From Candidatus Hodarchaeota archaeon (GTDB lineage: Archaea > Asgardarchaeota > Heimdallarchaeia > Hodarchaeales > Hodarchaeaceae), in assembly GCA_029856365.1 (NCBI GenBank), contig JAHQWW010000124.1, positions 1-11,355 on the forward strand: a stretch of 11,355 nucleotides of DNA, read 5' to 3'. The notes below the pieces were generated by a model, which did not search any database, was not told the DNA's origin, and saw only the letters and a program-made list of their open reading frames with translations. Shown piece after piece: positions 2-11,355 of this stretch. A program made the translations under genes and the position numbers. Every line of letters starts with the position of its first letter. Position 1 is the first letter of the stretch.

Positions 2-694
2 TGAGTCACTCTGGGGATCCCCATCCGCATCTATAAAACTATAGGAAGCAGTGAGAGTATCACTCGTTTGAGCACCACTTGGAGTGATCTGCAAATTAGA
101 AGCAGAGGGGGCACTGTTTTGAATGGTAACACTATTTGATTGGATCCAATTGGAATAATTCGTACCATCCCAGGCGCGAACCTCACACCACCATGTTTCA
201 CCTTTCTTCGTTTGGTCTGAGGGAATAATCACTAATCCCTCATAACTGGAGTTTTCAGTGGGATTATACCACTTAATTTCAAATGTTAGAATATCAGCAT
301 CAGCATCTGATGTGGTATTACTAACAACAAGCTGTTGAGTTGTTAATGGATTTAGAGGTAAGACTGAAACACTAGTAACCTTAGGTGGAGTATTTTGGAT
401 GAAGATTATCTCTGAGGCAACAAGGATCCCAAAATCTTGGCCATCTTTGGGTTTAACGGTAGTATTCCATGCATCCCCTTTATTCAAAGCTGACTCAGGA
501 ATGGATTTTTGGTCATTGTAAGCAGATTGGAGGATTCCATTTTTATACCAACGGATTTGTGTTCCTCCTTCACTATCCCCATCTTGATCATAAAATGTAT
601 AATTTAAATAGAGAGAAGAATTACTGTAAATTGGAATTAAAATTGAATATTGATCACGTGACAAAGTAATATCATTTACTTCAGGGGGATGATT
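2..694 (-). repeat. Gene-A-type stalk repeats in gene B (2 complete, 1 partial)
   Basis: Units begin NHPP (694), NTPP (394), NSAP (118). They contain YDQDGDSE...IRWYKNG...NKGDAW...PKDG and DADAD...IKWY...TKKGETWW...AWDG, the same consensus as gene A. Confidence 0.88.
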
Positions 695-9100: not shown

Positions 9101-11355
9101 TACCAAGTAGTTGCATTGAAAAATCCTTGGATGTTTGCTTCGGTGATAACGGGAGGAGTATTCCCAATAGTGATTTGTTTGCCATAGTACCAACTGATAA
9201 TTGAGACCCCCCCCTCCTCACCATCATTTGGTGTTATCGTCACCCACCAGCGTTGGCCAGCTTTAGTGTTGGTCGAACTTAAGGTGAGAAGGTTATTTGG
9301 TACTAATTCTAAATCGCTATTCGCCCAAGAAATTAACGTCCCTGTTTCATTGTCTAAAGGATAATCATCATCGTACCAAGAATAAGTAAGAGAGAGCGGG
9401 TCGGAAGTACTCATTCCCCCTGTTATACTTATACTAAAGGGATCGACCCATGGCCTACTATTCTTAATTTCAACAGGATCAGATAATATCCAGTCTGTTG
9501 ATTCATTGTAACCATCAGTAATCTTAATATCGAATTTCCATCGTTCACCTTTGTTTGTAGCGGTATTGGGAAGGATCAAACTACCATTATAACTAGGGAC
9601 AAGATAATAATTATAGGGAGCCGAGGTATCAGTAGAACGGTACCATCTAATCTCAGAAACGCTTACATTTTCACCATCAGCATCAGCATAGAGATAGTTA
9701 ACAGTTAGATTATGAGTTGTTTTCACATCAGACTCAGCAAAATAAGCAAGAGTAATGGTGGGAACAGAATTTAGAATTAATAAATCTCCAGAAGTGCAAA
9801 TAGACCCAGTATCCAAACTATCCGAAGGAACAACAGTATAAGACCATGTCTCCCCTTTCTTCAATCGACTACCAGGTACAGTGAGTGATCCGTTAAGATC
9901 AGATTGAAGAGTGGAGTCTTTAAACCAGCGAATACTATCAATGAACTGAATATCATCCCCATCCGCATCAAGGAGAGAGGATAAGATAGCGGACTCCACC
10001 AAGACCAATCCTGTTTCTACAGTTGGACTCGAGGGAAGGGGAAGAGAGGACACATTGACAGGAGCACTATTTTGAATTTGGGCATGGGGAGACTCCTGAG
10101 GAAGGGAGTAAGCTTGACCATCATAACAGCGCACGGTGTACCACCAGACCTGGTTCTTGGTAGTATTTCCTGAAAGGACCGAAGATGTATTTGTTAATCC
10201 GCCTATAGATTCGCCATTCAAATACCAAACAATGAATGCAGCGGCATCATCCCGCGGATCGTCGTCTAAATCATCATAGTCCCAACCAACAACGAGATCA
10301 TCACTAGTGGTGGGATTTGTCGTGATAGTTAGGTTCCCTACCACGGGGGCTGTGTTGAGAATGGTAACATTATACCCTAAGGCAACAATGCTGGAATACT
10401 CCTCTCCGTCAAACGCCTGGAGAGTGAACGACCAGCGATCAGTTTTAGTGGTGTTGTCCGCGTTGAGGGTAGCATTTGAGCTAGTGGTTGACCAGCTGCC
10501 ATTAAAAATGCCATTCAGATACCAGGTGATATTAAACGTCAGAGAATCACTATCATTATCGTTAAAAGTCCAGCTAGCGACTAGATCACTAACAGTTGTC
10601 GGATTAGCGGTCAAATCTAAGTAATCGACCTCTGGAGGACTATTGAGAATGGTATAAAGCGAAGAATTGTAAAAAATCCCCCATGCAATCCCATCGAACA
10701 CTTTTACCGAAAAGTTCCATTGTTGACACTCCAAGGTAGCACTCGCAGGGACTGTCAATTGATTATTATAATCTGATTGAAGTGAGCCATTCATGTACCA
10801 GCGAATCTCATATCCATATTGTGGATCACTGTCGTTATCCGCATAATCAAAGGTCGCGGTTAAGCTTTGATAGGTTTTGGGGGTAGAAGGGTTGATTGTC
10901 AGATTTTCTGCATAAGGGGGGTCGTTCGATCTCGACCCAATCATCATCCCTTGGGCCGAGCTGACATTGGCACTATAGGCTTCGCCATCATATACTCGGA
11001 TGATATAAGACCATACTTGCCCAGAAGTAGTGTTATCCCCATGAATTTCGGTATTGTTATTATAAGCTGAATTATAGGCCCAATCCACGTACCAGTACAC
11101 GATTAGTTTACCCGTTATGACCTCTGAGTCGCCATCGGCATCTGCAAAGCCATAAGTTATATTAAATCCTTTTTCATCTGCCACAGGGCTAGTCTCATTA
11201 AAAGTCGGGTTAGCGACTGTGGGGATGGAGTTTTGAATGCTGACAATATATCCCAGGGTGATCTCACTGGAGTTAATCTCACCGTCGTAAGCGGTAACAT
11301 TGAATGACCATTCTTGACCTTTAGTGGTGTTGCCCGAAGTAAGAGTAGAGTTCAT
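6172..11355 (-). CDS. Giant single-pass (type I topology) surface glycoprotein: at least 12 tandem cadherin/Ig-like repeats, TM helix, C-terminal cytoplasmic uDENN/longin-like domain; 5'-partial
   Basis: 1727-aa open frame in the ORF track ending in TAA (6172-6174). The first residues (MNSTLTSGNTTKGQEWSFNVTAYDG) are the second half of an internal repeat and there is no signal peptide, so the ATG at 11355 is probably internal and the gene starts upstream of the window. TM segment LVLVIVGITVLVAIFGSIVYV is followed by RFIRK. Confidence 0.93.
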   Translation of the reverse strand: MNSTLTSGNTTKGQEWSFNVTAYDGEINSSEITLGYIVSIQNSIPTVANPTFNETSPVADEKGFNITYGFADADGDSEVITGKLIVYWYVDWAYNSAYNNNTEIHGDNTTSGQVWSYIIRVYDGEAYSANVSSAQGMMIGSRSNDPPYAENLTINPSTPKTYQSLTATFDYADNDSDPQYGYEIRWYMNGSLQSDYNNQLTVPASATLECQQWNFSVKVFDGIAWGIFYNSSLYTILNSPPEVDYLDLTANPTTVSDLVASWTFNDNDSDSLTFNITWYLNGIFNGSWSTTSSNATLNADNTTKTDRWSFTLQAFDGEEYSSIVALGYNVTILNTAPVVGNLTITTNPTTSDDLVVGWDYDDLDDDPRDDAAAFIVWYLNGESIGGLTNTSSVLSGNTTKNQVWWYTVRCYDGQAYSLPQESPHAQIQNSAPVNVSSLPLPSSPTVETGLVLVESAILSSLLDADGDDIQFIDSIRWFKDSTLQSDLNGSLTVPGSRLKKGETWSYTVVPSDSLDTGSICTSGDLLILNSVPTITLAYFAESDVKTTHNLTVNYLYADADGENVSVSEIRWYRSTDTSAPYNYYLVPSYNGSLILPNTATNKGERWKFDIKITDGYNESTDWILSDPVEIKNSRPWVDPFSISITGGMSTSDPLSLTYSWYDDDYPLDNETGTLISWANSDLELVPNNLLTLSSTNTKAGQRWWVTITPNDGEEGGVSIISWYYGKQITIGNTPPVITEANIQGFFNATTWYGTSFGTNFDLVINYTVSDIDQDEGATGYGIILVGDYLSEAEYIWFRNRSGAVTQVLELKGETSVPFYNTEKGDVWWAQIRPRDLYGDYGLPVNSTQIIIGNTAPQVLNLQWDQTDYRTADNLSFSYDFFDFDPDDTEVNITIHWFLNGTYSPLYDNQRVISFTVLKKGQTWRVECMVYDGEAYSIWFSLPIIIIKNTLPVGSSVLLLPFSPTTAEHLMAAWNYSDIDGDLEQQARILWYRNSVLQPALNDALMVHSGNTSKSELWYYTIEVFDGENYSVLVTSPVITIINTAPTLENISFIMINPNTTLPLEVDWTFLDIDGDTESTTVIIRWFKDGVNQSALADSRVVASSFTAKGEVWNYTVQVFDGQAYSIVYSSITITIDNAIPSIGAYSYEFNQTQSQVEGPDVRNSLTKEVFYVVGEPISISYEFMDPDLPLDSDQSRIYWYYYDNRTSRWVEELLYRQNLSIPSSGASPGDCWRCTIIPSDGLANGPNITFPVIIIESNPLIHDNSPTITALTDIEGHYKFYLTATDLNNITTVEYLFTDSAIDTQYAQRSSTDNVWFLEFQLPIEDFQSYLGTNLTGSVKVISTVAYDSQTFKIYTMVPFTFEVRDEAPPRVVNPRWMFNDDLAPTNITFYTDIIEYGSEITDITLYYYFRLFEGTESPAVGIGASLLQSDTSEWRVEHMTLHNTTGGIPTYSITVPFDHNGTDREILYKIITTDSAGNSGIAYDIERDDPDRIGETRFTFSPPGIDPTLVLVIVGITVLVAIFGSIVYVRFIRKPELVGLDKELVLKKITEISEVEVMATLDSHTIGVVVSFFDQRHGPIPIIVIPEILKDNFSKLVDLSDRSFSGTGFCDDFNTEIPSSYDFVLAQGLRTSVMSFGFALERPTARGGQENLTCNILIHQEVFPLVESFKEEIKGKIHSIHKLMNKEDSDKNIIRSKIFSLRKFVSSVVMSYERIYGTTELIIGED
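6175..6657 (-). other. Cytoplasmic uDENN/longin-like domain (FLCN/SMCR8/NPRL2 type) of gene A
   Basis: N-terminal beta-hairpin IGVVVSFFDQRHGPIPIIVIP (6595-6657) matches the hydrophobic-F-x4-GP-x5/6-P signature of uDENN longins. The downstream MSFGFALERPTARGGQENLTCNILIH has the F-x-L-x4-ARG motif (Arg codon 6415-6417). Two amphipathic C-terminal helices follow, as expected for the longin fold. Confidence 0.72.
6766..6828 (-). other. Single transmembrane helix of gene A
   Basis: 21 uncharged, mostly hydrophobic residues LVLVIVGITVLVAIFGSIVYV, followed by RFIRK. The positive-inside rule puts the C-terminus in the cytoplasm. Confidence 0.9.
6832..7587 (-). other. Two membrane-proximal Ig-like beta domains of gene A
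   Basis: Beta-rich segments that lack the stalk consensus. The second runs from DEAPPRV (7260) to TDSAGN (6919-6936), the D-x-x-P-P ... D-x-A-G-N signature of prokaryotic Ig-like domains. Confidence 0.6.
7588..11355 (-). repeat. 12 complete plus 1 partial tandem protein repeats (~95-120 aa), cadherin/Ig-like stalk
   Basis: Units begin NSIP, NDPP, NSPP, NTAP, NSAP, NSVP, NSRP, NTPP, NTAP, NTLP, NTAP, NAIP. Consensus N-x-x-P...T-x3-L-x3-(Y/W)-x-(Y/F)-x-D-x-D-(G)-D...I-x-W-(Y/F)-x-(N/D)-G...T-x-K-G-(E/Q)-x-W-x3-(V/I)-x3-D-G...I-x-I. The repeats are divergent at nucleotide level. Confidence 0.88.

Follow-up and report, generated by a model that had tools for sequence, protein, structure and literature searches.

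The stretch of DNA analysed here (the window, 11,355 nucleotides) comes from a Candidatus Hodarchaeota archaeon (GCA_029856365.1, contig JAHQWW010000124.1) and carries portions of two giant genes, gene A and gene B, that belong to one family of putative surface receptors with a longin domain at the cytoplasmic end. The window is the complete contig C155 (about 11.4 kb) of a draft genome that totals 4.24 Mb on 204 contigs and is 84% complete, with an estimated contamination of 4.2%. It is occupied by two long frames at 6172-11355 (1727 amino acids, aa) and 2-5725 (1908 aa), with an intergenic spacer of 446 bp (5726-6171) between them; these frames and all features of the two genes given below are on the minus strand. 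Because the window is the whole contig, both genes are cut. Gene A is represented by the C-terminal part of a giant single-pass membrane protein whose 5′ end is missing, and gene B by the N-terminal part of a neighbouring giant gene whose 3′ end is missing. An ATG at the very edge of the contig (11353-11355) falls in the middle of a repeat unit of gene A, and is thus an accidental triplet and not a start codon.

Most of gene A encodes a tandem repeat of about 95 aa, present as one partial and 11 full units (7948-11355), with a degenerate 13th unit at 7588-7887 recognized by a hidden Markov model (HMM). The conserved columns of the alignment are NxxP, DxDGD, (I/V)xW(Y/F)xNG, KGxxW and DG. An HMM trained on the gene A units alone and then run against gene B matches aa 1678-1777 (E 3.7e-23), aa 1778-1869 (E 5.3e-22) and a cut unit at aa 1870-1908, so that gene B runs into the opening 2.4 units of the same repeat (2-694) before the contig ends. 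This sharing is far beyond chance, and the original prediction was therefore correct in describing two adjacent, co-oriented genes with a common repeat. When three units were modelled with AlphaFold2 (AF2), the prediction (predicted local distance difference test, pLDDT, 97.1) was a string of beta-sandwich beads, each with the seven strands typical of tandem fibronectin type III (FnIII) or immunoglobulin (Ig)-like repeats, and it drew at least 500 Foldseek matches at E<=0.001, led by the FnIII tandems of titin, contactin and fibronectin. No Pfam family is matched by gene A at E<=0.01, repeats included.

Next to the membrane, gene A carries a stalk module (aa 1137-1508, 6832-7947), delimited by blastp, that is conserved just ahead of the transmembrane helix in family members and occurs at the matching relative position in complete homologues with 34-79% identity. 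A single hydrophobic transmembrane helix follows (aa 1509-1530, 6766-6831) and is succeeded by the basic sequence RFIRK, which implies that the N-terminus lies outside and the C-terminus inside the cell. The ectodomain contains 53 NxS/T sequons, compared with 20.4+-3.5 in shuffled sequences, and the tail contains two. Judged from the sequence, the sequon excess, the lone helix and RFIRK together fit a glycoprotein with its N-terminus out and its C-terminus in.

Gene B provides the other end of such a protein. It begins with a hydrophobic segment that, from its sequence, is a signal peptide or anchor (5642-5725), followed by four heads of about 350 aa each (1274-5482), every one consisting of DUF2341 plus Laminin_G_3, the latter of the ConA-like lectin fold, as delimited by Pfam and a module HMM. 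Both Pfam families score above their cut-offs, each over four stretches (DUF2341, E 2.4e-29, 102 bits; Laminin_G_3, E 1.7e-58, 197.5 bits); the lectin label itself derives from sequence. Between heads and repeats, where the original prediction had placed an Ig domain, lies a conserved post-head module (aa 1485-1677, 695-1273), identified by comparison with homologues, in which modules 41-63% identical to it occupy the same place.

The cytoplasmic tail of gene A (aa 1536-1727, 192 aa, 6175-6750, with the stop codon at 6172-6174) is predicted to be a longin domain of the type found in FLCN, NPRL2 and SMCR8. An AF2 model built from a 38-row alignment has a pLDDT of 91.8, and its secondary-structure order, beta-beta-alpha-beta-beta-beta-alpha-alpha, is that of longins. 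In a structural search of this model with VIA-align, all against representatives, the strongest match was the longin of a Lokiarchaeota Roadblock-Longin protein (8yqg; Z 13.5, 141 residues aligned, root-mean-square deviation 3.0, 14% identity), accompanied by FLCN (6nzd_H; Z 11.7, 19% identity), C9orf72-SMCR8 (7o2w; Z 11.3), Lst4 (Z 10.6), a GATOR1 chain (Z 10.6) and the SEA complex (Z 10.0), with the longins of SNARE, TRAPP and adaptor proteins at Z 6-8. Foldseek ranks chain 6ulg_N of the FLCN-FNIP2-Rag-Ragulator complex first. From these models we are confident that the tail adopts a longin fold, as the original prediction had proposed for the intracellular part of the protein.

The assignment required structure searches, since a sequence-profile search of the PDB with the tail alignment returned no longin, its sole matches being spurious ones to reverse gyrase (E about 0.01). 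In the ESM Atlas the tail matches only unnamed Asgard clusters, of which one at rank 6 (score 0.80) carries NPR2 on 19% of its members and offers no more than a lead. Longin SNAREs have an N-terminal longin, a SNARE motif and a C-terminal anchor. An identity as such a SNARE (VAMP7, Sec22 or Ykt6) was considered and rejected, as the order here is reversed (ectodomain, transmembrane helix, longin) and such longins match the structure less well (Z 7.2-7.8); only about 10 residues of the protein remain past the last longin helix, so that no SNARE motif follows.

Two stretches are the best conserved across an alignment of 131 tails, namely FDQxxGPxP at the start of strand 2 and PxARGGxEN in the loop between strands beta4 and beta5. 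In gene A the former reads FFDQRHGPIP (6610-6639), and the AF2 model places the beginning of strand beta2 at tail residue 44, the glycine of the GP motif, which is where longins with GTPase-activating protein (GAP) function carry it. This glycine (G44) is invariant (131/131), P45 is found in 124 tails and the second proline in 130. The GP motif has been reported in FLCN, NPRL2, SMCR8 and C9orf72 but not in other longins, and it adjoins the arginine finger (PMC12290439). In the second stretch, ARGG of gene A (6409-6420) presents R1647 (tail R112) as a candidate arginine finger; 124 of the 131 tails have arginine at this position. The draft genome also encodes a free-standing tail copy of 184 aa, with neither transmembrane helix nor ectodomain (L018, contig G000:C49, 5479-6033, plus strand), which keeps the GP motif and has SPDN in place of ARGG.

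That the two partial genes are halves of one family is supported by full-length homologues and by the closest relatives, which are collinear with them. A profile search of 1.84 billion representative proteins recovered 193 family members, and in each of the best 150 of these the tail forms the extreme C-terminus; the shortest of the same 150 are cut fragments of a few tens of residues, and lengths extend over a free-standing form of 184 aa up to 5809 aa. Public records label the family proteins only as "DUF2341 domain-containing" or "hypothetical". Using HMMs built in this analysis to count modules in complete homologues, we found three heads, 22 repeats and the tail in P0045 (4285 aa), three heads, 20 repeats and the tail in P0013 (3962 aa), three heads, 11 repeats and the tail in P0022 (3074 aa), and four heads, 10 repeats and the tail in P0014 (2979 aa). 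In all four, blastp also places the post-head module of gene B and the stalk of gene A in the predicted order. Full-length members had been expected to exceed 3000 aa, which is true of the first three of these proteins; P0014 falls just short, and a complete member in the source genome itself, on contig C199, joins a DUF2341-LamG head to the tail in only 1293 aa.

The missing ends of the two genes can be approached through their relatives. In the relatives that are most similar to gene B and collinear with it (L032 and L036, 54% identity over 1135 aa; L039 and L041, 40% over about 1890 aa), the protein finishes with the tail, and by this comparison gene B would be about 4,300 aa long. For gene A the nearest relative is a frame of 3687 aa at L023, in a closed genome of the same genus, which opens with four heads and points to a length of about 3,600 aa. 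The expectations that gene B terminates in a transmembrane helix plus longin and that gene A opens with a head are thus borne out by these relatives, but the corresponding ends of the two genes themselves are off the contig.

At least 10 copies of the tail are present in the source genome by tblastn, counter to the possibility that the tail is single-copy, and the family occurs in 19 of 20 genomes of the genus, with up to 10 copies per genome. Distant members (E about 1e-14 to 1e-21) are found in two other families of the class. Matches outside the class are few and mostly weak, with the exception of one genome (E 2.9e-58). Between paralogues, identity is 37-42% for heads, about 45% for repeat regions and 68-71% for tails, a pattern that fits the proposal of variable heads on a constant, shared tail. 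Ectodomain length also shifts drastically between orthologues: the protein that bears the closest orthologue of the gene A tail (L053, 9377-10579 of the closed genome CP070695.1; 87% identity) is only about 400-490 aa long. At the opposite extreme, open frames of about 8,800 to 10,400 aa that end in the tail occur in the same genus (G062:C193, G102:C10, G119:C87 and G211:C52) and are among the largest archaeal frames seen in this work.

Assemblies that carry the family are labelled Hodarchaeota or Heimdallarchaeota. We also noted that tails from the metagenome-assembled genome "Thorarchaeota TM1M.79" are nearly identical to those of "Heimdallarchaeota TM2S.58" (L036/L032, L041/L039, L050/L042 and L048/L047), with end-branch lengths of 0.008-0.05 and one exception, L035, which groups with L044. 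Judging by these sequences, one of the two assemblies probably bears an incorrect taxon label in public records.

Gene A and gene B appear to be members of a tandem array. The source genome has four contigs (C155, C158, C147 and C135) on which a tail-bearing gene is followed by a head-bearing one; C158, C147 and C135 repeat the layout of C155, with repeats, stalk, transmembrane helix and tail, a short spacer, then signal, heads and repeats, and both ends cut. At six contig ends a head-bearing gene is cut off (C155, C158, C147, C135, C136 and C186), and at five a repeat-plus-tail gene enters (C155, C158, C147, C135 and C90). The gene on C186 (G000:C186, 2895-8348, plus strand) stands apart. It comprises one head and 10 repeats of the gene A type, and its cut end is about 90% identical to a fragment on G000:C119 (13394-14467, minus strand) that ends in a TGF-hydrophobic-RRR anchor resembling PGF-CTERM, with no longin. 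Going by this similarity, the C186 gene probably ends in a PGF-CTERM-like anchor as well, and the ectodomain modules would then also serve ordinary anchored surface proteins outside the longin family. The possibility that the two genes of the window only share a promiscuous repeat is nevertheless countered by the multi-copy tail and by the closest relatives of both genes.

When C186 is set aside, five heads open at the 3′ side match five tails open at the 5′ side. We infer a single chain that runs from C136 through the four junctions to C90, which the counts fit, and the array probably consists of five genes of about 3,500-4,300 aa each. Contig ends have no exact overlaps, and their matches to other contigs reach only 66-92% identity at internal positions; hence a scaffold cannot be built. 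Each tail of the source genome groups with orthologues of its own from elsewhere in the genus, indicating old paralogues rather than strain variants. Gene B starts with TTG or GTG, and a ribosome-binding-like site, GGAGAG, lies just 5′ of this start and is kept in all four junction contigs. The spacer of the window also contains an element of about 25 nt, GATTWATCTAG...TTTTAAAA, at 5873-5897 (minus strand), for which no occurrence is expected by chance. A looser second copy is located at about 5960-5990, and C135 and C147 have the element in their spacers as well. Possible roles are those of a promoter (B recognition element (BRE)/TATA-like) or of a regulator site that gives each gene of the array its own start.

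Asgard archaea are rich in Rag-, Arf- and Rab-like GTPases and equally in longin or roadblock proteins, yet almost no pairings between the two groups are known to us. Rag-family GTPases are the clients of FLCN and GATOR1, and it is genes of this family that accompany many of the longin tails. Among 39 related loci in other genomes, 34 family genes have at least 3 kb of visible flank; a Rag-like gene lies within 5 kb of 16 of these 34, and within 200 bp in 13 of the 16. With about 6-8 such genes per 4.24 Mb in the source genome, roughly 0.3 would be expected by chance in the 210 kb of flanking DNA. In all 10 neighbours checked, the best Pfam family is Gtr1_RagA (PF04670), above the cut-off, at E 1e-26 to 1e-40. 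The arrangements differ. A convergent Rag-like gene of about 750 aa is combined with a divergent one of about 316 aa at L033, L037, L038, L045, L046 and L050; a convergent Rag gene with no second one in the visible DNA is found at L047 and L048; a gene of 302 aa lies 51 bp downstream on the same strand at L039 and L041; a gene of about 730 aa lies about 190 bp upstream at L026 and L031; and at L029 a gene of 321 aa follows the giant gene by 72 bp on the same strand. Retention of the linkage across at least four different arrangements, with two Rag subtypes, argues for a functional relationship. For comparison, GTPase genes of the Lokiarchaeon MK-D1 are generally not in operons with longin or roadblock domains (PMC10933270).

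In the source genome, the head-bearing gene on C136, which may be the first of the array, has a divergent Gtr1/RagA-family gene of 312 aa at a distance of 480 bp upstream. A look for small GTPase or roadblock genes near the family had been suggested; Gtr1/RagA genes are indeed found there, at relatives and on C136, but the nine matches to the roadblock family Robl_LC7 in the source genome include none on family contigs. Of 59 Ras-family matches in the genome, a single one falls on a family contig, C49, where 12 kb separate it from the free-standing longin. On C136, the gene directly downstream of the Rag-like one encodes a HEAT/TPR solenoid protein of 1030 aa (L015, G000:C136, 3093-6185, minus strand). 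Another group of genes is conserved between L058 (G000:C12, 43-9428) and L053 (11181-20518), and encodes proteins of 313 aa, 1143 aa, 448 aa (with a tubulin/FtsZ-family GTPase domain) and 737 aa (Rag-like), and a divergent Rag-like protein of 300 aa. In the closed genome of the same genus, this five-gene cluster at L053 is situated about 600 bp downstream of the orthologue of the gene A tail.

Taken from the outside inwards, the architecture of the family is a signal, three to five DUF2341 plus LamG heads, a linker module, 10-20 FnIII/Ig-like repeats rich in N-glycosylation sites, the stalk, one transmembrane helix, and the 192-aa longin of the FLCN/NPRL2/SMCR8 type, which bears the GP motif and the conserved loop arginine. 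From these topology signals, taken together with the fold and motifs of the tail, its copy number and the Rag synteny, the explanation we favor, and consider reasonably probable, is that these proteins cross the membrane once and serve at the cell surface as receptors or adhesins that are coupled to Rag-like GTPases, with GAP activity as the probable mode of coupling; here we infer both the catalysis and the ligand. The ectodomain would engage a partner, a surface or a glycan, while the membrane-tethered longin tails, probably as dimers, would contact Rag-family GTPases at the plasma membrane. The tail would most likely stimulate GTP hydrolysis through the arginine of ARGG (R1647), and contact outside the cell could thereby be coupled to a Rag-like switch. 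A more far-reaching version is that Hodarchaeales possess receptors in which lectin-type heads on a glycosylated stalk are wired to a folliculin/NPRL2-type longin GAP that acts at the plasma membrane on GTPases of the Rag family, and which have diversified by tandem duplication, as a prokaryotic, membrane-anchored forerunner of the eukaryotic Rag-FLCN/GATOR nutrient-sensing systems. We put this forward tentatively, as a possibility that is attractive but somewhat doubtful.

Several observations weigh against these proposals. The case for a GAP role of the tail is built from genes and a predicted structure, and R1647 as a possible counterpart of FLCN R164, NPRL2 R78 or SMCR8 R147 is a lead. The gene A tail has no match to Pfam Folliculin (PF11704) or NPR2 (PF06218), and although two paralogues match PF11704 weakly over the ARGG region, the better score is 16.4 bits against a cut-off of 23.3. 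In eukaryotes, GAP longins pair with a second longin into working heterodimers and are followed by DENN or other C-terminal domains. The tail has neither a DENN nor an NPRL2 C-terminal domain, given its end about 10 residues after the last helix, and no partner longin subunit was identified for it. Moreover, the window itself contains no GTPase gene, and the 3′ end of gene B and the 5′ end of gene A lie beyond C155. About half of the related loci have no Rag gene within 5 kb, and because these loci are kin, the synteny counts are non-independent and do not provide a clean statistic.

It is also conceivable, but unlikely, that the longin tail is a passive docking platform that tethers dimers of Rag-like GTPases to the cell membrane, as Ragulator does for the eukaryotic Rags, without any catalysis. 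TRAPP, Mon1-Ccz1, Ragulator and AP sigma chains are among the structural matches of the tail, and longin and roadblock domains are common platforms for GTPases. The Rag gene neighbourhood suits binding as well as it suits catalysis, and the free-standing paralogue combines GP with SPDN at the position of ARGG. Against this view, the GP motif and the loop arginine are the two best-conserved features of 131 tails, and the GP motif is shared with GAP longins and not with TRAPP subunits, adaptins or DENND-family proteins (PMC12290439). Quite improbable, in our view, is a purely structural role as surface coat or adhesin, in which the tail would act in sorting, dimerization or cytoskeleton attachment and the Rag synteny would have been inherited by chance. 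Such a role would agree with the use of the same heads and repeats in the C186/C119 gene, with its probable PGF-CTERM-like anchor and no longin, with the small protein that bears the closest orthologue of the gene A tail, and with the loci that lack a nearby Rag gene. It is harder to reconcile with a Rag linkage that survives changes of arrangement and of Rag subtype, and with tails that are far better conserved (68-71%) than the ectodomains (37-45%).

The array itself could be illusory if the junction contigs represented one locus from several strains or species that had been misbinned, and a draft of 204 contigs with some estimated contamination and no exact overlaps between contig ends invites this suspicion. 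We nevertheless regard misbinning as very improbable, as the protein sequences of the tails diverge by about 30%, each tail has its separate orthologue set in the genus, other genomes of the genus hold comparable copy numbers, and tail-then-head junctions recur in other assemblies (L019-L022). A receptor family coupled to Rag-like GTPases continues to be our preferred explanation. Its immediate value is that a GAP-type longin, anchored in the cell membrane as part of a receptor-like protein and gene-linked to Rag GTPases, offers concrete, matched protein pairs for biochemistry. If the interpretation is true, it would represent a new kind of archaeal transmembrane signalling, and the logic of eukaryotic nutrient sensing by Rag GTPases and longin GAPs would have existed at an archaeal cell surface before there were lysosomes.

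Among known systems, plexins and the Fat/LamG cadherins are similar in having a large modular ectodomain, one transmembrane helix and a cytoplasmic regulator of small GTPases. This is an analogy only, with no homology; the two sides differ in GAP fold, in client GTPases and in the families of their ectodomains. The closest structural match, the Lokiarchaeota Roadblock-Longin protein 8yqg, is dimeric and therefore fits the idea that the tails dimerize, but it is a soluble fusion with low sequence identity that has no membrane anchor or ectodomain. Among archaeal proteins, some free-standing longins of Heimdallarchaeia, termed "Folliculin/SMCR8-type", carry the GP motif and an arginine finger and have been proposed as kin of the GAP longins (PMC12290439), and fusions of two-component signalling domains to NPRL2-like longins have been described from Asgard archaea (Liu et al., bioRxiv 10.1101/2020.10.19.343400). 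FLCN/NPRL2-like Asgard longins are thus already published. The transmembrane form, the giant ectodomain and the Rag neighbourhood go unmentioned in those two papers, and the word "transmembrane" does not occur in PMC12290439 or PMC10933270. Our literature search, which left most subscription journals outside its reach, found no description of a transmembrane longin receptor with a giant ectodomain or of such a Rag neighbourhood, and both are new to the literature searched. A close resemblance is also seen to FLCN (FLCN-FNIP, yeast Lst7-Lst4), NPRL2 (GATOR1/SEACIT) and SMCR8 (C9orf72-SMCR8-WDR41), with which the tail shares the longin fold, GP at strand beta2 and an arginine in the loop, and, for FLCN and GATOR1, an association with Rag-family GTPases that is seen here between genes. 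The archaeal tail differs from all three in that it terminates a giant single-pass surface protein, is known from genes and models, and has a sequence similarity to them that lies under the Pfam cut-offs.

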